Virus record (IMG/VR): IMGVR_UViG_3300025889_000082
Span: 41,348 to 105,347 of that record
DNA: 64,000 nt
From: a virus
Lineage: Duplodnaviria; Heunggongvirae; Uroviricota; Caudoviricetes
Direction: 5' to 3' (one strand)
The notes beneath the pieces were generated by a model. That model did no database searches. It was not told the origin of the DNA and was given only the letters and a program-made list of their open reading frames with translations. Shown piece after piece: positions 4,913-61,300 of this stretch. Positions within the stretch are counted from its first letter, which is position 1. Every line of letters begins with the position of its first letter. Made by a program: the position numbers and the translations under genes.

Positions 4913-4970
4913 AATTGTTAATTTAGTGTACAAATTTAATACTTTTCTCTGATATTTCCATACTTTTTCG

Positions 4971-5012
4971 TTAAAAAATAAAGCCCCTAAGATAGAAATC
5001 CCAGGGGCTGAC
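4971..5012 (-). terminator. rho-independent terminator (- strand) downstream of the Cys-rich gene
   Basis: On the - strand: cagcccctgg-gatttctatctt-aggggctt followed by TATTTTTTAAC. Confidence 0.5.
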
Positions 5013-5069
5013 ACAATTAACGAAAAACAGAGATGCAAACATACGTATATAAACGCATATAAATGCAAA

Positions 5070-33567: not shown

Positions 33568-33886
33568 AAAAACTACATACATCAACACAGAGCTTGAATG
33601 GGCTGAAGCACAGCTGAAGTCTTGGAAAGCTTATGTAGATGCAAATCCTCTTCATGAACTGAAGGACAGGATTGAATGGAAACCTACAGCTAAGGGTGGA
33701 ATGCTTCCTATGGTCATAGCAAGTATAGAAGCTCAGGGTAAGTTTGTCCAAGAGACAATGAAGAATTACCTAGCGTTAGTAGAAGTGGTTGATAAACTCA
33801 GAAGTGCAGAAGAAGCTAAGGTGGAAGTGAGAGGTAAGGGAGAACTATCTGGAGCAGCTGAAGACTGGCTGAAGAATAGAAAATAA
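33545..33886 (+). CDS. hypothetical protein (candidate small terminase by position)
   Basis: 113-aa coiled-coil-like ORF whose stop overlaps the TerL ATG (TAATG). Confidence 0.35.
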   Translation: MMKMATIKKTTYINTELEWAEAQLKSWKAYVDANPLHELKDRIEWKPTAKGGMLPMVIASIEAQGKFVQETMKNYLALVEVVDKLRSAEEAKVEVRGKGELSGAAEDWLKNRK

Positions 33887-35925: not shown

Positions 35926-38516
35926 TGGCAATTATAAGATATACGAAAGACGCAACAATTAGGTATGCCTATTTGAACATCTTTCCTGATCAATTTAAAA
36001 CTGAGAAGGAAAAGATGGATGAGAGTTGGATTAAGAATACTATGGACTACTTTGCTAATAAGGCATATGCAGAGTATGTTAAAAGCAGAGATACATTTGT
36101 AAAGAACTATGACCTTGTTAAAGGTATTTTAAGAAGAGAAGATTTCTATGTTGAACCAGAGGTGAGAAGTTTCACAGATGTGCTTACAGCAGATTTGGAT
36201 CTTCCTGCTTATGTTAAGATGTATTCTATTATCACCACTCCTCTTAACGAGTTAGTTGGAGAGATAAGCAAACGACCAGATGCGTTTCGTGTCAAAGCAT
36301 TTGATGATGATAGTAAATCAGAAGAGTTAGAATTTAAAACTCAAATGTTAAATGACTATGTTGTTAACAAAGCTAAGCAGAAAATCATGGAAGATGCTGC
36401 TATGAGAGGTGAAGAGATTGATGAAGAAGAGATACAGAACATGAGCTTAGAACAAGTGAAAGATGAATTAGATAACTATACTTCTACAGCAGAAAAGTGG
36501 GCAAACCATATACTATCAGCTCAGAAGATTGAGTTTAATTTAAAAGAGAAAGGAGAAGATACATTTAGAGATTTATTGATTTCTGCTAGAGAGTTCTTCC
36601 ACATTTATGAGGATAACTCTAAACTTGGGTTTAATGTAGAGGTGGCTAATCCTAAGAACACTTGGTTCTTAACTACACCAGACAGAAAGTATATTTCAGA
36701 TCCTACAGGTAGAGCACAAGGAGCATATGCTGCTGGTATTGTACAGGTTATGGAATTATCTGAGATTATTGAATCTGTTCCTGACTTAACTAAAGAAGAG
36801 ATTGATCACTTACGTAGTTCATTGCAAGACTATGGTTTAATTAATGTACGTGAATCTAACTTAGGTAATCCTAATGCCATTCCTGGTAATGACTCTATTC
36901 AATATGATACATATGATCCATTGGTATTACAAACCAGAATGATCATTGAATCTGAAATGAAGGAAAATAATGATGGTTTAAAAGACTTCTTAGGATTAAC
37001 TTCTAATGTTAGTAGCTTTGGTTACAAGTATGTAGTGGTTAGATCTTACTGGATTTCTAAAAAGAAGATAGGTAAAGTTATTTACTTAGATGAGTTAGGA
37101 AATGAACAATCTCAGTTAGTGGATGAGAACTATAAGTCTGGAACTCTTCCTACACAACAATCATTAGAGTGGGGATGGATTAACCAATGGTACCAAGGTA
37201 TCAAGATTGGTCCAGATATCTATCATATTAAACCTTATAACTTATTACCTTATTGTCCTATCATTGGACAGGTGTTTGAGGTGAAGAATACAGAAGCTAA
37301 AAGCTTAGTGGATATGATGAAACCTTTCCAAGTAATTTATAATGTTTGTATGAATCAACTTTATAAGTTATTGGAGAAAGAGGTAGGTAAGGTACAATTG
37401 ATGTCTATTAGACACATTCCTATTCCTAAAGATGGTGATGCTCAAGATGCATTAGATATCTGGGAAATGGAAGCTAGAAATAGAGGTGTAGTATTTGTGG
37501 ATGACAGCCCAGAGAACTTAAAGAGTCCTTCTAGCTTCAACCAATACACCAGCTTAGACCTTACACGTACGCAGGAGATCCAAGCAAGATATACTCTAGC
37601 TCAACAGATTAAGAATGAATGTTGGGAGTTGATAGGTATGTCAAGACAAAGACTTGGTTCTGTGTCTGCTAGTGAATCTGCTACAGGAACTAATGCAGCA
37701 ATTACACAATCTTATGCTCAGACAGAACCATTGTTTGTAGCTCATGAATATGTAATGGGACAATTATATCAAGCAATTATTGATGCAGCTTTATATGTAG
37801 AAAGTGCTAAACCACAATCTACTATTTCATATGTTACTTCTGAGGGAGAGTCTGCATTTGTATCTGTAAATGGTACAGATTTACGTTTCAGAGATTTAAA
37901 AGTATTCTTGACTAATAGACCTGAAGATAAACAAATGTTTAATGAGATTAGAGGATTATCTCAAGCTGTTATTCAAAATGGTGGTAGCTTGCATGATGTA
38001 ATTGAATTGTATAGCACTAACTCTATGAGACAAATGAAGAAGGTGTTCAAGACACTTAAGGATAGACAAGAGGCTATGCAGAATGCTCAAATGCAACAAA
38101 AGCAACAAGAATTAGAACAACAACAACAACAAGTTCAGGCTCAAATTGAAGCTGCTCAACAACAAGCTCAAGAAAAAATGGCTAATGAAAACTACCAAGC
38201 AGAGCTTGATAGAATTAATAAGAAAGAGATTGCTCTTATTGCAGCTGAAGCTAAAGGTGGTCCATTGAGTGACATTGATCAATCAGGAGCTCCTGATGTG
38301 TTAGAGATTGATAAATTAGCAATGGAACAAGCTAATGCTCAAAAGGAATATCAGACTAAGATGATGGACATGCAAAGTAAGAACCAATTAGCAGCTGAGA
38401 AGTTACAAATAGAAAGAGAGAAACTAAAGATAGCTAGAGAGAACCAAGCAAATGACTTGGCCATAGCTAAGGAAAATGCCAAGGGAAGAGCCAAAGCAAA
38501 ACCAAAAACTAAATAA
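35925..38516 (+). CDS. portal protein with Q-rich coiled-coil C-terminal extension
   Basis: 863 aa immediately after terL (ATG overlaps the stop). C-terminus is …QNAQMQQKQQELEQQQQQVQAQIEAAQQQAQEK… Assigned by size and position. Confidence 0.5.
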   Translation: MAIIRYTKDATIRYAYLNIFPDQFKTEKEKMDESWIKNTMDYFANKAYAEYVKSRDTFVKNYDLVKGILRREDFYVEPEVRSFTDVLTADLDLPAYVKMYSIITTPLNELVGEISKRPDAFRVKAFDDDSKSEELEFKTQMLNDYVVNKAKQKIMEDAAMRGEEIDEEEIQNMSLEQVKDELDNYTSTAEKWANHILSAQKIEFNLKEKGEDTFRDLLISAREFFHIYEDNSKLGFNVEVANPKNTWFLTTPDRKYISDPTGRAQGAYAAGIVQVMELSEIIESVPDLTKEEIDHLRSSLQDYGLINVRESNLGNPNAIPGNDSIQYDTYDPLVLQTRMIIESEMKENNDGLKDFLGLTSNVSSFGYKYVVVRSYWISKKKIGKVIYLDELGNEQSQLVDENYKSGTLPTQQSLEWGWINQWYQGIKIGPDIYHIKPYNLLPYCPIIGQVFEVKNTEAKSLVDMMKPFQVIYNVCMNQLYKLLEKEVGKVQLMSIRHIPIPKDGDAQDALDIWEMEARNRGVVFVDDSPENLKSPSSFNQYTSLDLTRTQEIQARYTLAQQIKNECWELIGMSRQRLGSVSASESATGTNAAITQSYAQTEPLFVAHEYVMGQLYQAIIDAALYVESAKPQSTISYVTSEGESAFVSVNGTDLRFRDLKVFLTNRPEDKQMFNEIRGLSQAVIQNGGSLHDVIELYSTNSMRQMKKVFKTLKDRQEAMQNAQMQQKQQELEQQQQQVQAQIEAAQQQAQEKMANENYQAELDRINKKEIALIAAEAKGGPLSDIDQSGAPDVLEIDKLAMEQANAQKEYQTKMMDMQSKNQLAAEKLQIEREKLKIARENQANDLAIAKENAKGRAKAKPKTK

Positions 38517-40491: not shown

Positions 40492-42045
40492 ATGGCAATT
40501 CAAACAATCCCAGGTTTAACTGGTTTTACCTATGCTAGAGTAGCTTCAATGGACAAGCGTGCAGTAGGTAAATTGACTGATGCGAACCATTTAGAGAGCT
40601 TCCACTCAACTGAGCCTGCTGATTATGATAAAAAGATCATCAGCTTGTATACTCAGAGTTCTCTTTATAGTAATGATTTCTTAGACATGATCAACAAGTC
40701 TACTCCTTACTATATTGATAACAATAGTGATGCTTGGAAATGGCAAGTACAAGTACCTTACAAGTTCCCTAAAATCATTGACGTTCCTACCAGCACTTTG
40801 GAATTAAACAAGCCTGGTATTGATGGTCAAGAGTTTCAATTAATCATTGACACTAATGAGTTTAGCAAGAACGCTATCATCTCTGTAGGTACACGTCAAT
40901 ATGGTCCACGTTTTTACGTAGTAAAAGATCCAGTTCCTTGGAACGTTGGATACTTGTACACATTCACTTTAGTAAGTGACAACCCAACTGTAGATTTCGT
41001 ATCACCTGTATTCTTACAAGTAGGTATTGAATTAGAATTGGTTGATGCTGCAATTGGTGAATTTGACCAAGACTTATTAGGTCTTCCTCGTTTAGGTGAG
41101 CAAATCACAATGTTTGAATCTTTAGGTTCTGCATATGGTTATGAGCACAAAATCACAGAGTGGGCTGATGACAAGATGATGAGAGACAGCAAAGGTAATC
41201 CATTGGATATCTTGGTATACGCTCCTCAAAGACGTAACCAATTACCTTTAACTCGTAATGATGTTAAATGGGAACCATTCATTGAATTCTGGATGCGTAA
41301 GTCTATGTTAGAATTAAAAGTTAAGCGTATGATCTGGGCTCGTCCTGGAACTGTGAAGACTAATGGTTCTAAGCAAGAATTAAAGCGTACTTCTGCTGGT
41401 GTTTACCACAGAATGCGTAACAATGGTAACTTAGTACAGTACAACAGAGGTGAGTTCACAGCTAACTTAATTCGTTCTGTATTTGGTGACTTATTCTACA
41501 GACGTGTGGATGTTAAAGACAGACGTGTTAAAATGTACACTAATGAAGCTGGCTTTGACGTATTCCAACAAGCTTTAAAAACAGATGCTTTAAATTCTGG
41601 TTTAACTTTCATGGCTGATTCTGGTAACAGATATATGCAAGGAGAAGGACAACACATCACTTACAACTTTGCTTTCGATGCAATGGTAACTCGTGAGACT
41701 GGTCGTGTTGAATTGATCCACTTGAAAGAGTTAGATTTACCTCAAACTAACTTAGAATTTGGACAGAATAAAAAATCTACTCCTGTATTCATGGTATTTG
41801 ATGTATCTCCTATGAGTGATGGTTCTATGGTGAACAACATTCGTGAAGTACGTATGAAGGGTGCACCTTCTATGACTTGGGGTTACATTGATGGTACTCG
41901 TCACCACTTAGGCTTTGCTAAGTCTCAAGGTATGAGTTCTGCAAACAAATTCCCTGGATATGAGATCTGGATGAAAGATCGTTGTGATGTATTTATTGAA
42001 GATTTATCTCGTACAGTATTGATTGAAGAGATTCCTCAATTCTAA
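40492..42045 (+). CDS. major capsid protein
   Basis: 517 aa after the scaffold gene. Codon usage suggests high expression (Arg almost exclusively cgt/aga, ggt/gct preferred). Followed by a cluster of GC hairpins. Confidence 0.55.
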   Translation: MAIQTIPGLTGFTYARVASMDKRAVGKLTDANHLESFHSTEPADYDKKIISLYTQSSLYSNDFLDMINKSTPYYIDNNSDAWKWQVQVPYKFPKIIDVPTSTLELNKPGIDGQEFQLIIDTNEFSKNAIISVGTRQYGPRFYVVKDPVPWNVGYLYTFTLVSDNPTVDFVSPVFLQVGIELELVDAAIGEFDQDLLGLPRLGEQITMFESLGSAYGYEHKITEWADDKMMRDSKGNPLDILVYAPQRRNQLPLTRNDVKWEPFIEFWMRKSMLELKVKRMIWARPGTVKTNGSKQELKRTSAGVYHRMRNNGNLVQYNRGEFTANLIRSVFGDLFYRRVDVKDRRVKMYTNEAGFDVFQQALKTDALNSGLTFMADSGNRYMQGEGQHITYNFAFDAMVTRETGRVELIHLKELDLPQTNLEFGQNKKSTPVFMVFDVSPMSDGSMVNNIREVRMKGAPSMTWGYIDGTRHHLGFAKSQGMSSANKFPGYEIWMKDRCDVFIEDLSRTVLIEEIPQF

Positions 42046-46145: not shown

Positions 46146-47264
46146 ATGTCTTGTTCAAATTGCCCTCCTGAGGCTTGTTATAATGGATGTGTAGAGATTG
46201 TATCTGATCAATGTGTTAGATATACAGGTCTTGACAGTGTTCCATTAAACATAACTTATGGAGATAATATTCAAGTAGTTATACAAAATGTAATTGATAA
46301 CCTAGTTCCTTTATTAGATGGAACAGGTGATAAGATTACTATAGCATCAGGAATACGCTGTGCTATATTAAATGGTTACTTACCTACTCCAGTAGATACA
46401 GATCAGTGGACTTCTGAACAGTTATTTCAATCATTAGTTAAAGTGGTTTGTGATTTACAAGATCAGATCACAGCAATTGATGCTGAGATAGCTACATTAA
46501 ATGCTGATTACAATATAGATTGTCTTAATGATGTAACATCTAGTTCCAACACTCATGACGTTGTCCAAGCTATCATAAGCAAACTTTGTGAAACAGTGGC
46601 TAGTTTAGCTGCATTAGAACTTGATGTAGCAACAAACTATGTTAAGTTAGCAGACTTAGATGCTTTGATTGCAGCATATTTGGCAGCTCATTCAGGTGGA
46701 TCTTCTAATCAGCAATATTTAAAAATGGTTCCATATGTAGCATATGAATACTATGGATCATTAGATAACTTTGATGGGTCAGGAATTGGCATCCCAGCAA
46801 ATGGTTTCTTTAAAGTATATTTATGTAATGGTCTTAATGGCACTCCTGATAAAAGAGGACGTGTTACTGTTGGAGCTATTCAAAATGTACCAGGTGGTCC
46901 ACTAGATGCTGCAGTAAATCCAGTAAATGCTGGTAATCCAAATTATGCTTTGTATAATACAGCTGGTGAAAATACAGTGACGCTTATTACATCCCAACTT
47001 CCTGTTCACTCACATTCAGCAGTTGCTGTATCTACTGCTAGTGTATCTCCAAATCCTCATAGCCATAGTTATGCAGGGGTACAAGTTCCTTCAGGTGGAG
47101 GAGATGGAAGTAGAACTTCTGTACCAGTTGATAAAACTACAAGTTCTGTAGATCTTACTGTTACTGTAGATACAGGTGTTACAATTGGTAATGCAGGTAA
47201 TGGGGCACCTCATGCAAACATACAACCTGTCATAGCTGCATATTATATCATGTATATTCCTTAA
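46146..47264 (+). CDS. tail fiber protein with C-terminal phage tail-collar (MdpB-like) domain
   Basis: TPDKRGRVTVGA (collar PDLRGR). GENTVTLITSQLPVHSHS (GsetvtLt..qmPaHtHt). Terminal GNGAPHANIQPVIAAYYIMYI (aHnNmqPYl.lnyiI). A second HSHS follows. Cys-rich N-terminus CSNCPPEACYNGCVEIVSDQCVRYTG. Confidence 0.65.
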   Translation: MSCSNCPPEACYNGCVEIVSDQCVRYTGLDSVPLNITYGDNIQVVIQNVIDNLVPLLDGTGDKITIASGIRCAILNGYLPTPVDTDQWTSEQLFQSLVKVVCDLQDQITAIDAEIATLNADYNIDCLNDVTSSSNTHDVVQAIISKLCETVASLAALELDVATNYVKLADLDALIAAYLAAHSGGSSNQQYLKMVPYVAYEYYGSLDNFDGSGIGIPANGFFKVYLCNGLNGTPDKRGRVTVGAIQNVPGGPLDAAVNPVNAGNPNYALYNTAGENTVTLITSQLPVHSHSAVAVSTASVSPNPHSHSYAGVQVPSGGGDGSRTSVPVDKTTSSVDLTVTVDTGVTIGNAGNGAPHANIQPVIAAYYIMYIP

Positions 47265-47283
47265 TAGATTAAACCAACTATAA

Positions 47284-50200
47284 ATGGCTTGTTTACCAGG
47301 AATGCCTTGCTATGGTGCTCAGCAAAAAGAGTGCTGTCCTGAGGTTAATTCAAATTGCGTAGATTATTCTGGACCTAATTTACCTTGTTCAGGTGTGCAA
47401 ACACATGACTGCCTTACCACTGCTATTGAGAAAATAGATGATAAATTGTGTAAGGTGGGGAATGGTACGTCTGGTACATCAGGATCATCAGGTCAAACAT
47501 ATGGAACAGCAGGTACCTCTGGTTCTTCAGGAACTAGTGGAAATGATGGTTCTTCTGGTTCTGCAGGTACTAGTGGTCAAACTGGTACATCAGGGACATC
47601 AGGTAGTTCTGGTAGCTCTGGTAGAACTTATGGTACATCAGGTACCTCTGGAACTTCTGGCTCATCAGGTAGTGCTGGCACTAGTGGTTCTTCTGGATCT
47701 AGTGGATCTAGTGGTTCTTCTGGATCATCAGGTTCATCAGGCACTTCTGCTTCTAGTGGTACTAGTGGATCTTCTGGGTCATCTGGTACTTCTGCAACTT
47801 CAGGATCCAGTGGTTCATCAGGATCAAGTGGATCTTCAGGATCTGCAGGAACTAGTGGTCAAGAAGGTACTTCAGGTTCAAGTGGTTCTTCTGGTATTTC
47901 TGGTGATAGATACTTTACAACATCAGCTGATTCTTTTACATTAGGTAATTCTGGTACATTAACTGTAGGCACAAACCTAGCATATACACCAGGACAATCC
48001 ATTATCATAGCACATGACGCTACCAATTATCAAGTGTCAACAGTATTATCATATAATGCTGGTACAGGTGCATTACAATTTTCTTCTCCTTCCTCAGTAG
48101 TAGGTTCTGGCACATACACTGCTTGGACCATCAACTTACAGGGGGCTGCAGGTGGTGATGGTTCTAGTGGAACTTCAGGTTCTTCTGGAACGTCAGGATC
48201 TAGTGGCTCTTCTGGTAGTAGTGGAACTAATGGTAGTTCAGGAACTAGTGGAACTAATGGTTCAAGTGGAACTAATGGTTCTTCTGGTACTAGTGCCACA
48301 TCTGGTTCTTCTGGTACTGCTGGAACAAGTGCTACATCAGGAAGTTCTGGTTCTTCTGGCACATCTGCCACTGCAGGAACTAGTGGATCTTCTGGCACAA
48401 GTGGTACCAATGGGTCTAGTGGTACAGCAGGATCATCAGGTACATCTGCTTCTTCTGGTACATCAGCAACGTCTGGGTCTAGTGGGTCTTCTGGTACTAG
48501 TGGGTCTTCTGGCTCAAGTGGTACTTCTGCTACTAGTGGTTCTTCTGGTACAGCAGGCACTAGTGGGTCTAGTGGTACAGTTGGCACTAGTGGAACATCA
48601 GGTTCTTCTGGTACTAATGGTTCAAGTGGAACTTCTGGTACTAGTGGTTCATCAGGTACAAGTGCTAGTTCTGGTTCCTCAGGTACAACTGGTACATCAG
48701 GTAGTTCAGGATCTTCAGGTACTAGTGGAACAAGTGGTACAAATGGTAGTTCAGGTACAAATGGATCCAGTGGTACAAATGGTTCTTCTGGTTTATCAGG
48801 AGATAGATATTTAACATCTTCCACAACAACTCTTACAATTGTATCTTCTGGAACAATTACATTTACAGTTGAAACAGGATTAGCATATAGTACATTACAA
48901 ACAGTTATTGTAGTACATGAAAACACCCATTACATGGAAGGAACAGTATTATCATATGATAGTGCTACTGGAGTAATGAGTGTTGATGTTACAAATGGTG
49001 TTGGATTAGGACTAACAGAATCTATGTGGACAGTGAACCTGTTAGGTGCTGCTGGTGGAGATGGCTCTTCAGGAACATCTGGTTCAGCTGGTACTAGTGG
49101 TACGTCTGGATCTTCTGGTTCAACAGGAACTTCTGGAACAACAGGAACTTCTGGCTCTTCTGGAACAAGTGGTTCTTCTGGAACTAGTGCAACTTCTGGT
49201 AGTTCTGGTACGTCTGGAACTAAGGGTACGTCTGGAACTTCAGGCATCAATGGTACCTCTGGTACAAGTGCAACTAGTGGTTCAAGTGGTTCTTCTGGTA
49301 CTTCTGGAACATCAGGTTCTTCTGGCTCATCTGGTACAGCTGGTTCTTCTGGTACATCAGGTACTAAGGGAACATCTGGTACCTCTGCATCATCTGGAAC
49401 GAGTGGTTCATCTGGCACTACAGGAACCTCTGGTACATCAGGCTCAACAGGTACTTCAGGAACAGCAGGATCTAGTGGTACAAGTGCAAGTAGTGGATCA
49501 TCTGGATCAAGTGGAACAACTGGTACTTCAGGATCAAGTGGTATCAATGGTACTTCAGGAACTGCTGGTACATCAGGTTCAACAGGAACATCAGGAACAT
49601 CAGCTACTTCTGGTTCAAGTGGTACAACAGGAACAAGTGGTTCTTCTGGAACAACAGGAACTAGTGGAAGTTCTGGTACTGCTGGATTAAGTGGAGATAG
49701 ATATCAAACAACTTCAACAACTCCTTTCACTCTTGGTAATAATGGTACAATAACAATTGGAACAGGACTTGCTTATACAGCAGCTCAGGTTATTCTTATT
49801 GTATATGATTTAACTCACTATCAAGAGTCTGTAATCATATCTTATAATGCTGGTAGTGGATCTTTGCAATTTGATACTCCTACAAGTACAGTTGGTTCAG
49901 GTACATTTAGTTCTTGGACTGTAAACTTATCTGGTGCTAGTGGTGGAGATGGATCTTCTGGTACATCAGGATCTGCTGGTACTAGTGGAGCAAAAGGTAC
50001 AAGTGGTACTGCAGGCACATCTGGATCTAGTGGTACATCTGCATCTTCAGGATCATCTGGCACTAGTGGAACGTCAGGTTCAAGTGGTACATCAGGTACC
50101 TCTGGTAGTAGTGGTACTTCTGGTACAAAGGGAACTTCTGGTACTTCAGGTGCTAATGGAACCTCTGGTACAGCAGGTACGTCTGGTTCTTCTGGAACAA

Positions 50201-51909
50201 CTGGTACTTCAGGTTCAGCTGGTACTAGTGGAACTAATGGAACAAATGGCTCTAGTGGTACAAGTGGTTTACAAGGTACATCAGGAACAAGTGGAGCAAA
50301 TGGGTCATCAGGCACATCAGGTACTAATGGTTCTAGTGGAACAACAGGTACATCTGGTAGCTCAGGAACAAGTGGAGTTAGTGGTTCCTCTGGTACGTCT
50401 GGTACAAAAGGTACAAGTGGTACTAGTGGTACGAGTGGTTCTAGTGGTACTTCTGGTACATCTGGTTCTAGTGGAACTACTGGTACTAGTGGTAGTAGTG
50501 GAACAAGTGGTACTAGTGGCAGTAGTGGTACTTCTGGTACATCTGGTACAAGTGGTAGTAGTGGAACAAGTGGTACTAGAGGTACATCAGGATCTAGTGG
50601 TACTAGTGGAGCTGGAACTATTAGTGGTACATTGAACTACATAGCTAAGTTCACTCCTAATAGTACCACTGTAGGAAATAGTCAGATTTTTGATAATGGT
50701 ACTAATATTGGCTTTGGTACCAATTCTCCAAGTTACTTTGCTGATTTTCAAGTTAACAATACTTCTTTTGTATCAAGATTTAGAAACTTAAATACAACAA
50801 CTGATAGTGCTGGTTTATTGATTCAGGCAGGTGTTAATTCTGGAAATGAAATATTGCTTTTAAAGAATGCAGCAGGAACAGCAAGAATGGGTGTCTATGC
50901 AAATGGATATGTAGGTCTTGGTACTGAAACTCCTACTGTTAGATTTAATATGGAAAGTTCAGGATCTTCATATTCTGATCCTAGTACAAATGATTGTTCA
51001 ACAATAGCATTATATAACTCAAATAGTTCATCTACCACAGCACATTCAATTCTTTCATTAAGAACAAATCTTGGAACTGGTGGTAATCCTTTTGTATCTT
51101 GGGATATACGTGGTGTTACAGGTTATTCAATGGGTATTGACAATGCTGACTCAGATAAACTTAAAATTGCTGCAACATGGTCTAATGTTGCTAGCTCAAC
51201 AATTCTTACATTTACAACATCTGGTGCTGCAACTTTTGCATCCACTGTAACAGCTTCTTCTTTGATTAAATCAGGTGGTACTAGTTCTCAATTCTTGAAA
51301 GCTGATGGTAGTGTAGATTCAAATACATATTTAACAACATCTTCTGCAGCTTCTACATATGTTGCTAAGAGTGGAGATACAATGACTGGAACATTAAACT
51401 TTTCTAATAACTTAGGAACTTGTTTATATGGTTCTATGGCAGATAATGATCAGTGGAGAATATATGCTGGTAATACAGGAAGCAATGCTGGATATTTAGA
51501 AATAGCTACAGCAGATGATGCTAGTGAACCAATTTATGTAAGACAATATAGTGGTGTGTTTGGTTCTTTGGTAAGAACATTTACATTGTTAGATGGTAGT
51601 GGTAACACTACAATGCCAGGAACTGTAACAGCTACAGCATTCTATGAGTCTTCAGATGCTACATTGAAAAAACTAATTACAGATGATTTCACTGTAGAAG
51701 GAATTGAAAACATTGCATCAAAGCTTTATATAAAAGATGGTAGACAAGAAGTGGGATATTTTGCACAAGATGTTCTACCTTTGTTACCAAATGCTGTTGC
51801 TAAGAATGATGCAGGCATATTAAGTTTATCATATAAGGAAGTGCATACAGCTAAGATAGCTAGACTTGAAAAGAGAGTTAAAGAACTAGAATCTAAATTA
51901 GGAATCTAA
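47284..51909 (+). CDS. giant tail fiber: Cys-rich N-anchor, four proline-free Gly-X-Y (X,Y=Ser/Thr) repeat blocks, three ~90-aa knob domains, distal domain and C-terminal S74 intramolecular-chaperone domain
   Basis: 1541 aa. About 245 G-[ST]-[ST] triplets (…GTSGSSGTSGNDGSSGSAGTSG…). The blocks are separated by three homologous GDRY(F/L/Q)T(T/S)S… knob domains. C-terminus is …YESSDATLKKLITDDFTVEGIENIASKLYIKDGRQEVGYFAQDV…, which matches the endosialidase/T5-LTF autocleaving chaperone (S-DxRLKK…). Confidence 0.7.
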   Translation: MACLPGMPCYGAQQKECCPEVNSNCVDYSGPNLPCSGVQTHDCLTTAIEKIDDKLCKVGNGTSGTSGSSGQTYGTAGTSGSSGTSGNDGSSGSAGTSGQTGTSGTSGSSGSSGRTYGTSGTSGTSGSSGSAGTSGSSGSSGSSGSSGSSGSSGTSASSGTSGSSGSSGTSATSGSSGSSGSSGSSGSAGTSGQEGTSGSSGSSGISGDRYFTTSADSFTLGNSGTLTVGTNLAYTPGQSIIIAHDATNYQVSTVLSYNAGTGALQFSSPSSVVGSGTYTAWTINLQGAAGGDGSSGTSGSSGTSGSSGSSGSSGTNGSSGTSGTNGSSGTNGSSGTSATSGSSGTAGTSATSGSSGSSGTSATAGTSGSSGTSGTNGSSGTAGSSGTSASSGTSATSGSSGSSGTSGSSGSSGTSATSGSSGTAGTSGSSGTVGTSGTSGSSGTNGSSGTSGTSGSSGTSASSGSSGTTGTSGSSGSSGTSGTSGTNGSSGTNGSSGTNGSSGLSGDRYLTSSTTTLTIVSSGTITFTVETGLAYSTLQTVIVVHENTHYMEGTVLSYDSATGVMSVDVTNGVGLGLTESMWTVNLLGAAGGDGSSGTSGSAGTSGTSGSSGSTGTSGTTGTSGSSGTSGSSGTSATSGSSGTSGTKGTSGTSGINGTSGTSATSGSSGSSGTSGTSGSSGSSGTAGSSGTSGTKGTSGTSASSGTSGSSGTTGTSGTSGSTGTSGTAGSSGTSASSGSSGSSGTTGTSGSSGINGTSGTAGTSGSTGTSGTSATSGSSGTTGTSGSSGTTGTSGSSGTAGLSGDRYQTTSTTPFTLGNNGTITIGTGLAYTAAQVILIVYDLTHYQESVIISYNAGSGSLQFDTPTSTVGSGTFSSWTVNLSGASGGDGSSGTSGSAGTSGAKGTSGTAGTSGSSGTSASSGSSGTSGTSGSSGTSGTSGSSGTSGTKGTSGTSGANGTSGTAGTSGSSGTTGTSGSAGTSGTNGTNGSSGTSGLQGTSGTSGANGSSGTSGTNGSSGTTGTSGSSGTSGVSGSSGTSGTKGTSGTSGTSGSSGTSGTSGSSGTTGTSGSSGTSGTSGSSGTSGTSGTSGSSGTSGTRGTSGSSGTSGAGTISGTLNYIAKFTPNSTTVGNSQIFDNGTNIGFGTNSPSYFADFQVNNTSFVSRFRNLNTTTDSAGLLIQAGVNSGNEILLLKNAAGTARMGVYANGYVGLGTETPTVRFNMESSGSSYSDPSTNDCSTIALYNSNSSSTTAHSILSLRTNLGTGGNPFVSWDIRGVTGYSMGIDNADSDKLKIAATWSNVASSTILTFTTSGAATFASTVTASSLIKSGGTSSQFLKADGSVDSNTYLTTSSAASTYVAKSGDTMTGTLNFSNNLGTCLYGSMADNDQWRIYAGNTGSNAGYLEIATADDASEPIYVRQYSGVFGSLVRTFTLLDGSGNTTMPGTVTATAFYESSDATLKKLITDDFTVEGIENIASKLYIKDGRQEVGYFAQDVLPLLPNAVAKNDAGILSLSYKEVHTAKIARLEKRVKELESKLGI
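47440..50620 (+). repeat. intragenic near-perfect 9/18-nt tandem repeats (ggt-ac/tc-t/agt) encoding the Gly-Ser/Thr triplets
   Basis: A 3-nt periodic, low-complexity region. It produces long spurious ORFs in all other frames on both strands. Confidence 0.8.
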
Positions 51910-54074
51910 TGAGTTGGAAATCAATAGCTGGAAATCAAACAATATCTAGAGCAAACCTTCAGAATGCTATAGATACTGGTGTGTTCATAGCAAAAAATGG
52001 TGTTCCTGGTACAGAGTCTAATAGACAGATAACCAAAGCAAATGCTCAAGACTATATATACACATGGGATCTTTATCCTTCTTTTTTAGCAGCAGCTTCT
52101 AATCAACTTCCTGTTAAACAAGAACTAGCTGTACAGTCTAATCAAGTGTATGCACAAGGAAGTACAACAATAGCTGTTGGAAATAATAATAGAAATTGGG
52201 TATATACTATACTTTCTAATTCTGGAGATAGCTGGGGATCAGTTGCTTCATCCACAGATAATAGATGTATACTAGCTGGAAGATCTTATAGTCCAGGTAG
52301 TGGAGGAGGAGGTCTTTGGGTATCTAATGACTATGGAGAAACATTTACAAGATTAGATTCTGTAATGAGTACCAATGATGCAGCACTGAGTACTGCTATG
52401 AATTCTTATGGTGATTATATGATTGCCACTAGACAAGTTGGATCTTTTGGTTCTCAAAGAGCTTATATATATTGGTCATATAATTCAGGAGTGAACTGGG
52501 CTACAGGATACCATGACACAATAGATTACAACTTTAATGGAGCTGCAATGTCTGGTGTTGGTGTATATGCTACAGTATTAGGTTCTGATGGAACTAGTTA
52601 TTATGTTTGGACATCTAATAGCTTTGGTTCTAGTTTTACTAAAACATATTTATGTGCTGGAACAAAAGTAGTACAAGGAGGATGTGTTGGTATGTCCAAG
52701 TCAGGGCAATATCAATTATTAACACCTCCTCAAGCATCTAGTCCAGATGTTGGTAATTTTTATGTTTCAAATGATTATGGATCATCTTGGACTACAGTTA
52801 ATTTAACACCTGTACCACTTGCTCCTAATGATACGTTCTATGGATGTTCTGTTTCTGCTGGAGGTGATTACATGACAGTAGCTGCTTATTCAAGTACATT
52901 AGGTCAATCTAGAACTTATATATCAAGTGATTGGGGAGTGAATTGGACTGTTATATCTGGAGCAGATGTTGCACAAGCTGTAGATAGTTCTGGACAATTT
53001 CAATATCAAAATGGTCGTGCATCAATAGATTATGGTAATACATGGTCAGGAGGACAATATGCATATGCTATTTCTGTAAATCCAACTACATATACCACTC
53101 CTTATATATATGGTCCATCAACAGGTGGTAATTTGTATAAATCTATTAATCAAGGAAATACTTATAGTGTTACCTCTTTGTCTGGATTTATAACTAAGGT
53201 GGCTACATCTGGTGGATCAAACAATGGTAAATATGTAGCTGCTATTGTAGACAACAATCCAGGAGGGTCTCCTAGCTATAATCTTTATAAGTCTAGTGAC
53301 TATGGGGCTAGTTGGTCTACAAACTTTTCATCATCTGGAGAAGTTATGGTATGTTGTGCTGTATCAGATGATGGAGTATATTGGTTTGCTGTTACATATA
53401 ATTCAGGAACAAATTTATCTTATATATATAGGTCTACTGATTCAGGAGCAAGTTGGCAGTATATGGGTTATATTTCTGGTCAAGCAATAAATTGTGCCAT
53501 GTCAAATATTGGGCAATATATAACTATGGTAGTAAGTACTCCTAATGGTGGATTTTATGATGCATATGTAGCTAACTCTTCTGACTATGGAGTGAATTGG
53601 ACAGGAGCAGCTTTTGATAGTTCAGGAAGAACATACAATGATATTGCTATATCTGGACATGGTAAGTTTAGAACATTTGTAAGTACAGATTCAGGAAACA
53701 CAGGTTGCAGAACATTTTATTCAGGTGACTATGGTGTAAACTGGTCAGAGATTTACTACAATGCAGGTTATGTTGCTACTAGCTGTGACATGGATGATTC
53801 AGGACGAGTTTGTTTGGCAGCTAATAACTCAAATGATAACACAGCTTCTCAAATATATTACACAATTAATGGATGGAGTTCTTATAGTACAAATTCTAGT
53901 TTGATGCCTTTCCCTTTTGCAGCTCCTATGATAACTGGTGTAAATGTATCTTCAGATGCTACATATTGGGCTCTTGTTTCAAACAATCAAGCTTATAGTT
54001 ATACATGTACAACAGGTAATGGAGTTTTCAATTATCAATACACAGGAATAACTTTTAATAGACTTAGTAAATAA
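51909..54074 (+). CDS. BNR/Asp-box repeat beta-propeller protein (sialidase/GH74-like fold); receptor-binding or glycan-degrading tail protein
   Basis: At least 12 Asp-box motifs (S-x-D-x-G-x-T/S-W): SNDYGETFT, YNSGVNWAT, SNSFGSSFT, SNDYGSSWT, SSDWGVNWT, SIDYGNTWS, SINQGNTYS, SSDYGASWS, STDSGASWQ, SSDYGVNWT, STDSGNTGC, SGDYGVNWS. They recur every ~45-55 aa. ATG overlaps the fiber stop. Confidence 0.65.
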   Translation: MSWKSIAGNQTISRANLQNAIDTGVFIAKNGVPGTESNRQITKANAQDYIYTWDLYPSFLAAASNQLPVKQELAVQSNQVYAQGSTTIAVGNNNRNWVYTILSNSGDSWGSVASSTDNRCILAGRSYSPGSGGGGLWVSNDYGETFTRLDSVMSTNDAALSTAMNSYGDYMIATRQVGSFGSQRAYIYWSYNSGVNWATGYHDTIDYNFNGAAMSGVGVYATVLGSDGTSYYVWTSNSFGSSFTKTYLCAGTKVVQGGCVGMSKSGQYQLLTPPQASSPDVGNFYVSNDYGSSWTTVNLTPVPLAPNDTFYGCSVSAGGDYMTVAAYSSTLGQSRTYISSDWGVNWTVISGADVAQAVDSSGQFQYQNGRASIDYGNTWSGGQYAYAISVNPTTYTTPYIYGPSTGGNLYKSINQGNTYSVTSLSGFITKVATSGGSNNGKYVAAIVDNNPGGSPSYNLYKSSDYGASWSTNFSSSGEVMVCCAVSDDGVYWFAVTYNSGTNLSYIYRSTDSGASWQYMGYISGQAINCAMSNIGQYITMVVSTPNGGFYDAYVANSSDYGVNWTGAAFDSSGRTYNDIAISGHGKFRTFVSTDSGNTGCRTFYSGDYGVNWSEIYYNAGYVATSCDMDDSGRVCLAANNSNDNTASQIYYTINGWSSYSTNSSLMPFPFAAPMITGVNVSSDATYWALVSNNQAYSYTCTTGNGVFNYQYTGITFNRLSK

Positions 54075-54084
54075 ATAAATCAAA

Positions 54085-54702
54085 ATGACAGTATTAGTAA
54101 CATTAACTTTAGCAGGGACAGATGTGGGTCCCTTTGATCTGTATTCAGATGCAGATGGGTATACAACTCCTCTAGCAACTGGTATATCTAGATCTTCTTT
54201 ATTGGCTGGATACAGTCTTGCAGGTGTTCCTGATGACGCTGCAGTTATAAGAGCTCAATCTACAGGAACTTGTACAAACTATTTAGACATGTATTTAAGT
54301 GGAGGAACTACCACTACTACTACATCTACATCTTCAACCACTACATCTACAACTACTGCAACACCATGTTTAACTGGTGATACAAGTGCCATTTCATCTT
54401 GTGGTGGTGGGGAATCAGCATTATTCACAGTAACTACAGGAAATACAGCTCTAATCACTCCAGGTGGGTATTACTATTCTGGAACTGGTACAAGAACTTA
54501 CACGTCTTATATTATGAATGCTGCTAATGATACAGTTTTGTATACATTCAACTATACACAAACAGGATCAACTCCAGGAACTTGGACATCTGACTTACCT
54601 TCTAATACATTACCTGCAGGTAGTTATCGCCTAAGAACAGACACAGTGAACTGTTTCACTAGCTCTGGTTCATTTAGCTTAAATGCTGCTTGTAATTCAT
54701 AA
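54085..54702 (+). CDS. hypothetical structural protein with GPFD N-module and poly-Thr linker
   Basis: N-terminus …AGTDVGPFDLYSDADGYT… resembles the N-terminus of ORF 62946 (…GGRTGPFDISDNLGT…). TTTTTSTSSTTTSTTTATP tract. Confidence 0.4.
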   Translation: MTVLVTLTLAGTDVGPFDLYSDADGYTTPLATGISRSSLLAGYSLAGVPDDAAVIRAQSTGTCTNYLDMYLSGGTTTTTTSTSSTTTSTTTATPCLTGDTSAISSCGGGESALFTVTTGNTALITPGGYYYSGTGTRTYTSYIMNAANDTVLYTFNYTQTGSTPGTWTSDLPSNTLPAGSYRLRTDTVNCFTSSGSFSLNAACNS

Positions 54703-54884: not shown

Positions 54885-56135
54885 ATGTCTGAAAACCAAC
54901 CCCTTTTACAGCAGCTTCAGCAGATGTTACACTGGAAAAAATCAAAGAAATACTATGCTGAAAAGCTAGGAGTCACAGAAACTGAGATTGATGAATTGTT
55001 AGAAGAGATAAGAAAACAAGAAAGGGTTGTAGAAGATGCTGAGGTTGGGAACTACATATCTGATTTAGAGGACGTGGTTGTTAAGTTCATGGAGGATGTG
55101 AGCAAAGGAACAGGTGAGGTCATAGCAAATGTATCTCAAGAAATCAAGAGCTTAGAGGAACTTATAGAGAAATGTAAGATAGACACAGAGAAATGGGAAG
55201 TAACTAAATATGTACAAAACTTCTGGGGAAATGGAGAGAATCCCCACTGGCAGGTGAAAGCCTGGTTAGGAAAGAAGTCTACAGAGCAGGTGTTTCAAGA
55301 TAGCTTTGTAGACTTTTTAAGTTCATATGAGCCTGTGTGTCAAGCAATTGCAACTCCTAAGATAGAAGTGAATAAAGAGTTTGCAATGTTAATTATCAAC
55401 AAACAAGACTCCCATTTGAACAAGTATGATATTGATGGAGACAACAATATTACAAATAGATTAGCTCAGATTATGTACAAGGTTGAGGTGATTGCTTCTC
55501 AAGCAGAGATGACTAACAACCTAGAAACAATAACCTACATCATTGGTTCTGACGAGTTCAATAGTGAATATACCAACGCAACAACAAAAGGTACTCCTCA
55601 GCAAAATACACATACATACCATACTTCCTTTAAATATATCTGTGACCATGAAATTTTAATGATCTCAATGTTATTATCACATGCTCAACAGGTAGAGGTT
55701 ATATATGTTGCTGGGAACCATGATGAGTTTGTAGGATGGCACATGGTAAATTGGTTGAAGATGTTCTTCAGAGATGAACCAAGAGTAATTATAGATGATT
55801 CTCCTAAGTATAGAAAGTACGTAAGTTATGGTGACTCTGCAATGATGTTTAACCATGGAGACGCTATCAAGCCTGCTAAGCTAGCTGGTATATTCCCAAT
55901 GGAGTTTAAAGATAGTTGGTCTGGTCACAATAACTACTATATCTTCACAGGAGATAAACACCATGAAGTGAGCTTGGACTTCAATGGTATCAAGTTCTAT
56001 CAAATTCCAGCTTTCTCTAAAGCTAAGAGTTTATGGGATGACAAGATGGGACATGTATGTTCTAAAGCAGAAGTTACAGGGTTCCTCATTGAGTTTGATA
56101 ATGGAATGACAAATATATTCAAACAATATTTATAA
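54885..56135 (+). CDS. calcineurin-like metallophosphoesterase-domain protein
   Basis: C-terminal half carries VIYVAGNHDEF (GNH[DE]), FNHGD and FTGDKHHE, which resemble MPP metal-binding motifs. N-terminal coiled coil. Confidence 0.4.
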   Translation: MSENQPLLQQLQQMLHWKKSKKYYAEKLGVTETEIDELLEEIRKQERVVEDAEVGNYISDLEDVVVKFMEDVSKGTGEVIANVSQEIKSLEELIEKCKIDTEKWEVTKYVQNFWGNGENPHWQVKAWLGKKSTEQVFQDSFVDFLSSYEPVCQAIATPKIEVNKEFAMLIINKQDSHLNKYDIDGDNNITNRLAQIMYKVEVIASQAEMTNNLETITYIIGSDEFNSEYTNATTKGTPQQNTHTYHTSFKYICDHEILMISMLLSHAQQVEVIYVAGNHDEFVGWHMVNWLKMFFRDEPRVIIDDSPKYRKYVSYGDSAMMFNHGDAIKPAKLAGIFPMEFKDSWSGHNNYYIFTGDKHHEVSLDFNGIKFYQIPAFSKAKSLWDDKMGHVCSKAEVTGFLIEFDNGMTNIFKQYL

Positions 56136-57354: not shown

Positions 57355-58326
57355 ATGGCATATTATTACAAATACAATTTTGTCTCTCCTGAGCCAATCT
57401 ACTCTATTGTTAAAGAAGAGTTAAAATCTTACTTTGACACAGGAGCAGTAGATGATTTGATGTTCCCAACTTACTTAGACAAATGTCTACAGAAGTTAGG
57501 TAGATCTAGTTATGTTATTGCTGAACAAACATTAAATGTTGAAGATTTTGAAGCTAGGCTTCCTGATAACTTCTTTGCTGTAAGAGAGGCTTGGATGTGT
57601 ACTGAGATTCCTCAACTACCTTACCAAACAGCAAATTCATTCTACTCTCAAGCTGCCACAGCCACTACAATTCAGGTTAGTCCTATTACAACAAACTGTG
57701 CTATTCCTAGCCCTTGTTGTGGAAATGTTGGATGTGATGGTAGTTGTATGCCTGAGATTATAGAAACTGTATACAAAACTAATACACAAGCTGCAAGGGG
57801 AATTAGAAAAGAATATCTATTAAAACCAGGTAATATATCTTGTCAGGGTAGATGTGATGTAAGTTATACAGATGCTTGGCAGTTCTATACAAACGTACCA
57901 CCTGTGAGAGAATTCACTCCTGGATCTGCAGGATATGATAGTTTTGATATTAGAGATAATAAGTTTGTTACAAACTTTAGATGTGGTATTGTTCACATGA
58001 TATTTTATGCTACAGATTATGATGCTGTAGGTAATCAATTAATTCCTAACAACTATCGTATTAGAGAGTACATTGAAGCTTTCCTTAAATATAAGGTGTT
58101 TGAAATATTAGCTAATCAGATTAATGATGAAACATTTAATCAAATACAACAGAAGTTAGGTTATTACAAGCAACTTTCAGAAGAAGCCTTTATCATGGCA
58201 TACACTGAGATTAAGAAACAAGATGCATGGACTAAGCAAAGAAGAGTAAGAAATGACTTACAACGTTTTGCACAATATGAATTACCAAATAGAAGCAGCA
58301 GATATGGCAATGGATGGAACAGCTAA
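57355..58326 (+). CDS. hypothetical structural protein with Cys cluster
   Basis: 323 aa. CAIPSPCCGNVGCDGSCMPE. Confidence 0.4.
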   Translation: MAYYYKYNFVSPEPIYSIVKEELKSYFDTGAVDDLMFPTYLDKCLQKLGRSSYVIAEQTLNVEDFEARLPDNFFAVREAWMCTEIPQLPYQTANSFYSQAATATTIQVSPITTNCAIPSPCCGNVGCDGSCMPEIIETVYKTNTQAARGIRKEYLLKPGNISCQGRCDVSYTDAWQFYTNVPPVREFTPGSAGYDSFDIRDNKFVTNFRCGIVHMIFYATDYDAVGNQLIPNNYRIREYIEAFLKYKVFEILANQINDETFNQIQQKLGYYKQLSEEAFIMAYTEIKKQDAWTKQRRVRNDLQRFAQYELPNRSSRYGNGWNS

Positions 58327-61300
58327 CGAGGGAACATCTAACATAAGACAAGAGTACAATCTTGGTAGAGTTGGATTAGACATGGACTCTTCTGTAAATC
58401 AAGTGCAGAAAGGTAAGCTTTCTTATGCTCTAAACGCAGCATTAGAAAACTTTGATGCTAACTCAGTGAGTTATCAGAATGAGCCAAGTAATGAATTTTG
58501 TTTAGAGTTTCCTGAAGGTTATCACCTTATTGGAACTCATTTTATACAAGAGAAAGGTAAACATATATTCTTCTTAGCTAATCCTGAAACAGGAGGAAGT
58601 GAGATAGGATATATGAACAATAATGATTGTGTATATCATACACTTTGCACTCCTATTCCTAATACAGAATTAACTGTTTGTGCTAACTCTGAATGTTTAA
58701 ACTTTGATATAAACTATCCAATACATAAAGCTGTACATAAGATTACAAACTGTACTACAGAAGTATATTGGACTGATGGATTAAATCCAAGAAGATTTAT
58801 TAATATTGAACAAGTTCCTTATATCACCACTTATTTAGATGATGGAATTTGTGATCCTGTTATCCAAGCAACATTAGATTGTAACAAGTTAAAGGTACAA
58901 CCTAATTTTCAAGTACCTACTATAAATATTACTGATATTGTTGTAGGAGGAGATTTAAAAGCTGGTGCCTATCAGTTTGCTATTCAATATTCTAATGCAT
59001 CAGGAGATGCTTACACATCATATTATTCTGTAACTAATCCTACATCTATTGCAAATACAGAGATAACAACTCCTGATTTTCAATACTCTGTAGGAAAGTC
59101 TATTGTATTGAGTATTGATAACTTAGATGTTACAGGATATTATCAATACTTTAACTTAGCTGTTATAAAGACTATCAATAATGGAACCACTGTAGAGTTA
59201 GTGGGAACATATAACATCCAAGAAAAGTCTGTAAATATTACTTATACAGGTCAGAATACAACTCAAATTCCTTTGAGTCTTGGTGATATACTTGAAAAGT
59301 TTCCTTATTATGATATTGCCAAGGACGTAACAAATGTACAAGACGTTATTGTTTGGGACAATTTAACTTCTATAGATAGGATTAACTATCAAAGTATTGC
59401 TAATAAGATTCAACTTCAGTGGGAAACATACAAATTACCAGCTAACAATACGTATGCTCAAGGTTTCTATACTGCTAATCTAAGAGGGTATTTGAGAGAT
59501 GAGGTATATCCTTTTGAGATTGTATTCTTATTAGATAATGGTAAACAAACAGATGGATTCCATATTCCTGGTAGAGCTAAGAATTTCAACGAGCTATCTG
59601 AACCAGATGTAACAACAGCTAATCCAGACTATGTTGGTGATGGAACTCCACAACCATATTGGAAAATATATAATACAGCTAGTGTACTTGTAACTTATCC
59701 TGCTCCTACAGAAAATAGTCCTAAAATAGGTGAAGCTTATCCTTATCAATCTGGAGACTTTGCATATTGGGAGTCTACAGAAAGATATCCTTGTAATATA
59801 GATGTATGGGGAGATTTAGCAGATCAACCAATTAGACATCATAAATTTCCTGATGTTCTTGTAAGTCCCATATTTGAAACAGTATCAACAGACTTTACTG
59901 CTCCTGTTATGCAAAATAAAGCAACCTTTCCAATAGGTGTTAAAATAGATGTACAACAGATAGCATTTCTTATTCAGTCATCTAATTTGACGTCTGAACA
60001 GAAAGCATCTATTGTTGGATTTAAGATAGTGAGAGGTAATAGAAGTACAAATAAATCTATCATTGCAAAAGGTATATTAAGAAATGTAGGTAAATATACT
60101 AGAGAAGGTACAGATTATTATTATCCAAACTATCCATATAATGATCTTAATAAAGATCCTTTCTTACTTGAAGAAAACAATGCTTATAATTCTCAATGTG
60201 ATACATTTTCTATAACAGTTACTACTGCTGGTGTATTACAATATACAAATTGTAATACAGCAGAAGTAGATACATTAGAGTTTGATTCAAGCACTAAAAC
60301 TATTTGTTCTATTACTCTTCCTGTATTAAATAGTGGGGTTGCTACATTTGAAAATATTACAGCCAGTACTTATACAATTAGAAACACATCTAACCCAATT
60401 TTTGGTTTATCTGTTACTTTTAATTATACAGATAGTATTACAGGAACTTTACAAAATATAACTGTACCTAAATTACAATCTAGAACAATTAACTCTATTA
60501 CTGTACCTGTAAAAATATCAGGAACAGATAGTTATACACTCGTAGCTAACAATACAGGTCAAAACACAAATTGTTACCCTGATCAGTTAAATGGATTTAA
60601 TAATATTGATTCTCCATATAGACAAGTATTTAATTCACCAGAAACTTCGTTTGGACAACCTAACTTAGGAAATGTTCTTAAATTAGAAAGTGTATTGTAT
60701 GGTGGAGGTAAGGCACATTTTGTTGAAGTGCAAAAGCACTCTATGTATAAGTTGCTTACAAAACAAACACAAATAGAGGCTTTAAATGCTAGTAAAAAAA
60801 TAGCTGATCTTGGAGGATTTAGTTCTACAGCATTCTTTACAGGATACCAAACATACTTACAAATCTTCCTTAATGGTATAAGTAGAAAGAATTTTACATA
60901 TTCTTTTAACTCTATATCTAGCTATGACTATAGTGCAGAAATACCTAATAATCAAGGAGTTAAACAAAGAGAGCTTGATAAATGTCAATATGTATTCCCA
61001 GGTGTACAAAATGTAGGAGACAATCATGATCTTAATAACTGGAATAGAGAATCATCTGTTTATACTAAAAGTATTGATAGTAGAGATGATGTACCTTATA
61101 CAGTGGCACCCCTTCCTTATCCTAATCAAACTCCTTCTCTTGTCGTAGCAGGTGTTAGTCAAATATCTGATGACTCAAGATTTACTATTTCACAAAAAAA
61201 CAATTGTGCAGCTCCTGAATTTCAAGAAGATATTAAAGTAGTATCTTATTATGGTTCTATAAAGACCATCAACAATAATCAGTGGGGACAAATATATTCC

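Follow-up and report, generated by a model that had tools for sequence, protein, structure and literature searches.

Can a long collagen triple helix be built from Gly, Ser, and Thr, without proline? This question is raised by one gene in a 64,000-nucleotide stretch of a tailed-phage genome (Caudoviricetes; positions 41,348 to 105,347 of the IMG/VR record IMGVR_UViG_3300025889_000082), which was analysed at its full length and is referred to below as the window. The gene (47284..51909, + strand) is the sole open reading frame (ORF) for a protein of 1541 aa (plus stop), in which four Gly-Ser/Thr blocks alternate with three small domains, here termed knobs, between a Cys-rich N-terminus and a C-terminal S74-type chaperone domain. 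A first-pass annotation, made by reading the letters without database searches, had described it as a tail fibre with a proline-free shaft that might or might not be collagen. On the evidence gathered here, the product of the gene is probably a homotrimer that serves a crAss-like phage as a virion fibre, most likely a tail fibre, with a triple-helical shaft and an S74 domain that directs its assembly. The shaft would then represent a compositional extreme of the collagen fold, a G-[T/S]-S repeat devoid of imino acids.

On re-translation, (Gly/Ala)-X-Y runs are found at aa 61-72, 74-115, 117-209, 287-508, 588-806, and 884-1111. The periodicity announced by the first-pass annotation is, therefore, genuine, while its count of about 245 Gly-Ser/Thr triplets proves slightly low, the shaft totalling 268-272. 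The triplets are distributed over block 1 (47464..47910, aa 61-209, ~49 triplets), block 2 (48142..48807, aa 287-508, 74 triplets), block 3 (49045..49701, aa 588-806, 73 triplets), and block 4 (49933..50616, aa 884-1111, 76 triplets), all on the + strand and the last three without interruption. Two single-residue insertions, both in block 1, account for the GxxYG interruptions noticed earlier (GQTY|G at Y73 and GRTY|G at Y116). The first position of the triplet is Gly in 253 of 268 cases and Ala, also noticed at the time, in 15; no other residue occupies it between the knobs. Proline is absent from the collagen-like blocks, as had been stated, all 18 Pro of the protein being located in the termini and the knobs.

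The two other positions of the triplet are not equivalent. Ser and Thr together account for 91% of the residues in X and 81% of those in Y (~86% of both combined), with Thr strongly favoring X (146 in X versus 14 in Y) and Ser favoring Y (98 in X versus 203 in Y). Ser is the most frequent residue in Y, followed by Ala, Asn, Thr, and Lys, of which Asn and Lys are almost confined to this position. Charged residues are scarce (5 K, 5 R, 7 D, and 1 E among 536 X/Y residues). The Pfam family Collagen (PF01391) matches the protein with 307 bits (cutoff 27.2; E 1.3e-93) over 10 stretches, but this is a low-complexity profile, and the match mainly restates the Gly periodicity. More informative is the behavior of Pro-containing relatives, in which Pro prefers X over Y, with ratios of 187:68 in the orthologues and 1183:165 in proteins of the knob family. 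In E. coli O157, the phage collagens that have been characterised likewise favor Pro in X (PMC3368898). The restriction to Gly and Ala, the X/Y asymmetry, the X-preference of Pro in the relatives, and the trimerising end domain described below form an indirect but coherent case that the shaft is ordered and collagen-like.

The codons indicate at which level this regularity is maintained. GGN codons are one step away from seven other residues, yet only Ala replaces Gly; as the first positions are strictly Gly or Ala despite scrambled codons, the Gly periodicity is held by selection on the protein. The fibre gene mixes its Gly, Ser, and Thr codons much as the window's remaining genes do. A near-perfect tandem repeat of 9/18 nt had been reported in the underlying DNA, but it is not there: with the exception of two very short arrays, those detected by TRF match at 60-84%; neighbouring 9-mers share 57-64% identity; and no exact repeat within the 4.6-kb gene exceeds 29 nt. 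A synonymous-codon shuffle, in which codons are permuted among positions with the same amino acid, reproduces these values without significant difference, for adjacent 9-mer identity (0.604 observed versus 0.595±0.010 shuffled), longest exact repeat (29 nt versus 25±3), and the number of repeated 18-mers (65 versus 47±13). There is no DNA repeat signal beyond the level imposed by the protein.

Two explanations that place the origin of the repeats in the DNA, or in its assembly, lose most of their force from these figures. According to the earlier proposal, near-identical DNA repeats make the blocks hypervariable in length, by slippage or by recombination between them, and thereby provide a rapid host-range dial. 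Among relatives, the number of triplets does vary a great deal (83 to at least 586), as do the number of knobs and the distal domain. Nevertheless, since the repetition in the DNA does not exceed what the protein requires, slippage is an improbable driver; the three collagen-plus-knob units, only ~65% identical at the DNA level, point to old duplications, and the 1541-aa protein is identical in two repositories. Overall, we consider the slippage scenario quite improbable, and what survives of the dial is modular recombination over evolutionary time, by which length, knobs, and tip vary. A recent tandem duplication of the collagen-plus-knob unit was also considered and rejected, given the ~65% DNA identity and an in-register collagen identity no better than that of shifted controls. 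The shaft is kept by selection on the protein, and not by DNA repeat dynamics. That the long repeat gene could be an assembly artefact is suggested by a contig of the same phage (L007, IMGVR_UViG_3300006802_001015), which stops at the start of the fibre gene. This is extremely improbable, however, as the identical 4.6-kb gene, with the same 1541-aa product, occurs on 4 contigs deposited at JGI or ENA, its reading frame is open throughout the knobs and termini, an exact repeat of 29 nt at most was judged unlikely to confuse an assembler, and long versions recur in two related contigs (L008 and L082, see below). Two of the 4 places were viewed (JGI sample 3300025732 and ENA assembly ERZ27275036), and the neighbour genes are the same in both. 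In L007, the upstream gene is 100% identical, and the contig breaks 84 nt past it. Despite the lack of true repeats in the DNA, several related contigs also break at the fibre start, perhaps because of strain-level variation in the fibre.

The collagen-like blocks are separated by three homologous knobs, all on the + strand (knob 1, 47911..48141, aa 210-286; knob 2, 48808..49044, aa 509-587; knob 3, 49702..49932, aa 807-883). Their number and homology had been recognized at first pass, but they are shorter than the ~90 aa then given, at 77-79 aa, the other two being 51-63% identical to the first. Structure prediction, which had been recommended as a check, gave a clear answer: the AlphaFold2 (AF2) model, built from an 8-sequence alignment, is a small seven-stranded beta-barrel with a predicted local distance difference test (pLDDT) score of 94. 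A Pfam search with the knobs returned no family. By contrast, an exhaustive profile search retrieved 3483 cluster representatives at E≤1e-3, of which 1148 remain at a cutoff of E≤1e-10; a single protein holds as many as 13 knob copies. Ten or more GXY triplets occur in 109 of the top 146 knob proteins, and the Pro content of X/Y ranges from 0 to 34% (median 9%); no Pro at all is found in 17 of the 84 knob proteins with at least 30 triplets. The BFVD matches (40-63% identity, template-modelling (TM) score 0.9-0.97) are carried by proteins named 'Collagen triple helix repeat [uncultured Caudovirales phage]' and by proteins of Virus NIOZ-UU157 (UniProt/BFVD A0A7S9SU90, A0A6J5M145, and others). 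Judged from these matches, the knob is a widespread, unnamed, collagen-associated phage domain. By analogy with the carbohydrate-binding module (CBM) inserts of the Streptococcus thermophilus phage Tal protein, for which this was proposed (PMC7533335), the knobs may bind ligands.

The C-terminal domain (51652..51906, + strand, aa 1457-1541) is an intramolecular chaperone and putative autoprotease of S74 type. The sequence SSDATLKK...GYFAQDV, from which an S74 chaperone had been predicted, contains S1457-D-A-T-L-K1462 followed by GYFAQ, and ends in a helix. The catalytic residues of the S-D-x-x-x-K motif would be Ser1457 (51652-51654, + strand) and Lys1462 (51667-51669, + strand). This motif, as well as the G and AQ of G..AQ, is invariant in an alignment of 18 homologues, 17 of which match PF13884 (best E 1e-20). 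Against the PDB, the homologue profile identifies S16 gp37 (6f45, E 7e-14), the GP4 fibre (8jov, 7e-10), MYRF ICA (7dc3, 2e-6), and T5 pb1 (8hqz, 6e-3), while phmmer with the C-terminal 434 aa found only a spurious match. In the AF2 model of these 434 aa, the last ~80 residues (pLDDT 87-96) form beta-hairpins and a long terminal helix, for which the top 9 Foldseek matches in the PDB are all S74/ICA structures (7dc3, 4uw8, and 3gw6; probability 0.54-1.0, E 5e-3 to 0.24). The S74 assignment is thereby confirmed. The solved homologues of this domain are trimers, and the fibre would, by analogy, be trimeric as well.

The position of the predicted cut, in turn, has to be shifted. In T5 pb1, the scissile bond is Thr1263|Ser1264, with Ser1264 activated by Lys1269 and an oxyanion hole provided by Arg1250/Asp1239 of the neighbouring chain (PMC4690869). 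The Ser-Lys spacing is the same in the fibre, and the homology places the predicted bond at Ser1456|Ser1457, with 85 aa released, one residue before the site first proposed (after the Ser encoded at 51652-51654). A conserved segment, ...R-T-x-T-L-L-D-G-S-G-N-T..., lies ahead of the predicted cleavage site, in a poorly modelled region.

At the other end, the Cys-rich N-terminal adaptor (47284..47457, + strand, aa 1-58, 8 Cys) carries the motif MAC.PG.PCY...Y.GPNLP..G[IV].T.D.L..A[IL].KIDD, conserved in ~45 syntenic orthologues. Its aa identity to the adaptor of the closest relative, L008, is 88%, in contrast to the divergent remainder of the protein, and it probably serves as the virion-attachment domain. 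Between block 4 and the chaperone, the distal non-collagen region of the mature fibre (50617..51651, + strand, aa 1112-1456) is a mosaic of shuffled fibre modules, whose sub-segments match different database proteins (~aa 1115-1218; 1192-1310; 1310-1371, with an FLKADGSVD repeat; and 1353-1453, the SGDTMTGTL...EPIYVRQY...LLDGSGNT module). The proteins that share these modules carry Phage_fiber_rpt, Gp34_trimer, tail-collar, Mtd_N, Sipho_Gp37, or head-fibre PF11133 domains. The distal region is the likely receptor-binding end.

The gene is not isolated. With the 372-aa gene directly upstream as a synteny anchor, 80 IMG/VR loci were retrieved, of which ~45 contain a homologous fibre directly downstream of the anchor. 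The family plan comprises the Cys-rich adaptor, a collagen-like block, usually one knob, a second collagen-like block, a variable distal region, and the S74 domain. Complete members have 535-816 aa and 83-181 triplets, with 0-14% Pro in X/Y. L008 carries a single knob, its blocks are of other lengths, and its distal domain differs (32% identity). In L082 (IMGVR_UViG_3300021079_000135, ORF from 2860), the orthologous fibre reaches at least 2258 aa, with blocks of 271 and 295 uninterrupted Pro-free triplets, which extends the family range to at least 586 triplets. Such a block length is close to that of a fibrillar collagen chain. From these comparisons, the gene of the window reads as an expanded, three-knob member of a modular family, in which the adaptor is fixed and shaft length and tip are exchanged. 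Pro-free Ser/Thr collagen-like repeats, by the same token, constitute one end of a continuum and not a singularity. The first-pass view that an imino-acid-free collagen is unusual thus holds with respect to characterised collagens, but not within this phage lineage and the knob family, where Pro-free repeats are common.

The setting is that of a virion gene. The window encodes a terminase (33886-35925) and a portal (35925-38516), both identified by PHROG matches, a major capsid protein (40492-42045, + strand; PF23898 Crass_capsid, E 1e-26), a ring protein 1 (57355-58326; PF24228, E 1e-6), and a muzzle protein (58253-62935; PF25731, E 7e-34). These matches assign it to the crAss-like phages and place the fibre gene within the structural module. 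The best PHROG matches of the fibre itself are tail-fibre families. The two ORFs that precede the fibre encode proteins of 204 and 107 aa, lengths similar to those of the crAss001 hub proteins (215 and 114 aa).

From these elements, an assembly pathway can be proposed. The S74-type chaperone (aa 1457-1541) would gather and register three chains, as deduced from homologous systems, and folding would run toward the N-terminus, through the distal beta-rich modules and then the four triple-helical segments. Each knob could constitute either a trimeric node re-registering the helix or a hinge. In a correct trimer, the Ser1457/Lys1462 dyad would cut S1456|S1457 and free the 85-aa chaperone, and the Cys-rich adaptor would anchor the mature fibre to the particle, with the exchangeable distal region on display. 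If the shaft is a triple helix, a rise of 0.286 nm per residue over ~816 collagen residues gives a length of ~230 nm, in segments of ~40, 63, 63, and 65 nm separated by the knobs. The capsid diameter of crAss001 is 88 nm (PMC10172136); a triple-helical shaft would be several times longer. In its boldest form, the proposal is that this fibre and its relatives are natural, unmodified, imino-acid-free collagen triple helices, hundreds of nm long, stabilised only by Ser/Thr hydroxyl-water networks, nucleated by the S74 chaperone, and re-registered by the beta-barrel knobs. This we hold tentatively, putting its chances a little short of even.

Several observations weigh against this reading, or against parts of it. 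The shaft lacks imino acids and is nearly devoid of charge pairs in X/Y, and one or the other is, to our knowledge, a trait of all verified triple helices, although not strictly a defining one; we know of no verified triple helix that does without both, nor of any imino-acid-free collagen that has been characterised experimentally so far. Ser and Thr have a middling triple-helix propensity in collagen host-guest data, and Gly/Ser/Thr-rich sequence is also typical of flexible linkers. Taken alone, the fibre scores 16.7-18.3 bits against PF13884 (profile positions 1-57/58), below the gathering threshold of 22. The monomer AF2 model of the distal 434 aa has a mean pLDDT of 61, with only the S74 part usable. 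BLASTP against the crAss001 hub proteins gp38 and gp39 and fibre gp22 returned nothing significant, and the N-termini of the fibre and of the crAss001 fibres gp21 and gp22 are unrelated by eye. The trimeric and dimeric head fibres of crAss001, finally, also attach by short N-terminal segments (PMC10172136).

These points feed three other explanations of the protein. The Gly-Ser/Thr blocks could, instead of a stable triple helix, form flexible tethers, mostly disordered and joined only at the knobs and termini, in a beads-on-a-string device to extend reach; the zero Pro content, the few charges, and a composition like that of engineered GS linkers would suit this. A disordered linker, however, needs no register, and Gly or Ala alone occupy the first positions over hundreds of triplets with scrambled codons; the X/Y asymmetry and the Pro preference of the relatives are collagen-like, and L082 retains 271 and 295 uninterrupted triplets. 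Disordered tethers are, therefore, unlikely in our estimation. A polyglycine-II bundle, as in the snow-flea antifreeze protein and gp38, was considered less likely too, given blocks of 73-295 triplets without turns, and was rejected also because a trimer of three parallel polyproline-II chains is in effect a collagen helix. Somewhat more credible than the tethers, but still rather unlikely, is a capsid (head) fibre like the trimeric gp21 of crAss001, with its N-terminus plugged into hexon pockets. The gene lies between the capsid and tail-barrel genes, and one distal module is common to proteins matching the phi29-type head-fibre family PF11133. Conversely, the tail-fibre PHROG matches, an S74 chaperone of a kind typical of tail fibres and spikes, and the position after two ORFs of tail-hub-protein size favor a tail fibre, while the lack of sequence similarity of gp21 and gp22 to the fibre does not speak either way. 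The tail-fibre designation given at first pass is thus plausible from gene position, with the reservation that crassviruses also carry trimeric head fibres (PMC10172136). The shaft might, lastly, be heavily O-glycosylated, the sugars stabilising or shielding it, a reading that is compatible with a triple helix and about as unlikely as the disordered tethers. The ~86% of X/Y residues bearing hydroxyls would provide the sites, and glycosylated Thr is named as a collagen-stabilising mechanism (PMC3368898). A family 2 glycosyltransferase (GT2) gene is, moreover, present in the window (1356-2042, - strand; 228 aa; PF00535 E 1e-11, above threshold), but it lies 45 kb away in the non-structural arm. 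Among the matches listed, the IMG/VR contigs with GT2 and those with the fibre do not overlap. Thr, furthermore, sits mostly in X here, whereas it is in Y in the known glycosylated-Thr collagens.

The triple-helical fibre has parts in common with several known systems. Collagen-like phage fibres, such as EPclA/B of E. coli O157 (PMC3368898), Tal of S. thermophilus phages (PMC7533335), and FibU of S. aureus 80alpha (PMC7048315), also combine a (Gly-X-Y)n shaft matching PF01391 with non-collagen ends and globular inserts between the stretches, which in Tal are CBM domains (PMC7533335). EPclA, nevertheless, has Pro in about half of the X positions and many charged pairs (PMC3368898), unlike the fibre shaft with its 0% Pro and 86% Ser/Thr in X/Y. 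The fibre differs further by its far greater length (~270 triplets), by a trimerising end of S74 type in place of a PfC or coiled-coil domain, and by belonging to a crAss-like phage. With the endosialidase of K1F (3GW6), T5 pb1 (4UW8/8HQZ), S16 gp37 (6F45), GP4 (8JOV), and MYRF (7DC3), it shares the C-terminal S-D-x-x-x-K, G..AQ, and terminal helix. Its S74 domain is shorter (85 aa versus 133 aa in T5), falls below the Pfam threshold alone, is cleaved only by prediction, and caps a collagen-containing fibre, instead of a beta-structured tip as in T5 (PMC4690869). The uncultured Caudovirales and NIOZ-UU157 proteins possess the same knob and, by their database names, the same collagen setting, but they are uncharacterised; the fibre of the window has three knobs and sits in a defined crassvirus structural module. 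The crAss001 fibres (tail gp22, head gp21 and gp29; PMC10172136) occupy a comparable position in the structural module, without sequence similarity, and the trimeric ones insert short N-terminal segments into a disulfide-stabilised hub or capsid pockets (PMC10172136). The word 'collagen' is absent from the crAss001 structure paper (PMC10172136), and no study in the literature searched linked collagen-like repeats with Crassvirales. Phage fibres with collagen-like repeats, collagen shafts interrupted by domains, and S74 chaperones each have precedents. The novelty lies in imino-acid-free Gly-Thr/Ser-Ser at this length, its union with S74, the recurrent unnamed knob, and the crAss-like setting.

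The genes around the fibre add some context. The upstream neighbour (46146..47264, + strand), which served as the anchor, is a 372-aa fibre-like protein matching PHROG tail-fibre families, with no match in a tblastn search of GenBank phages. Its Cys-rich N-terminus (MSCSNCPPEACYNGCVEIVSDQCVRYTGLD...) resembles the fibre adaptor by eye and is possibly paralogous, which suggests that the two fibres share one kind of docking module. Downstream, the fibre stop TAA overlaps the ATG (TAATG) of a 721-aa ORF (51909-54074, + strand), which has a sub-threshold BNR/Asp-box match only, no PDB or PHROG relatives, and may encode another virion appendage; PDB relatives were likewise not found for the protein upstream of the fibre. 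No Shine-Dalgarno-like sequence was seen 5' of the fibre start (47260-47283, TTAAACCAACTATAAATG); starts of this kind are usual in hosts such as Bacteroidota, which do not rely on it. Overlapping ORFs in other frames and strands of the fibre gene were taken as by-products of the low-complexity repeat. Two further ORFs (54085-54702 and 62946-63812, both +) share an N-terminal 'G(P)FD' motif (LTLAGTDVGPFDLYSD / LTCSGGRTGPFDISDN), and the former also bears a poly-Thr/Ser run (GGTTTTTTSTSSTTTSTTTATP). A DNA-repair-exonuclease-like gene (54885-56135, + strand; PHROG 704, E 4e-45) is located between the fibre and the tail-ring genes, and a full-length RecA homologue (3974-5068, - strand; PF00154, E 4e-81) is encoded elsewhere in the window. 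The GT2, whose homologues are found on IMG/VR contigs of ~112-117 kb, is a candidate for virion or DNA modification. As for relatives with names, GenBank phages searched by megablast and blastn with the fibre gene or the terminase-portal region gave nothing useful, and the only relative of the major capsid protein among 50,697 GenBank phage records is that of Leptolyngbya phage Lbo-JY46 (26% identity); any cultured relatives are very distant. Among the homologues of the fibre modules, one (P0010) takes its name from a Dolichospermum metagenome-assembled genome.

If the shaft is triple-helical, a long and stable collagen is possible without proline or hydroxyproline, and nearly without charge pairs. 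The known sequence rules of the collagen fold would then be extended, with a bearing on recombinant collagen design, and the interest of the fibre would rise further with a demonstration of the helix. A crAss-like phage would also carry a fibre several times longer than the ~90-nm width of a crassvirus capsid. For the uncultured crAss-like lineage to which the window belongs, the analysis defines a modular fibre family, made of an adaptor, an adjustable shaft, a recurrent knob, a swappable tip, and a disposable chaperone. The roughly seven-fold variation in shaft length among its members suggests selection on reach through a thick host envelope or capsule.

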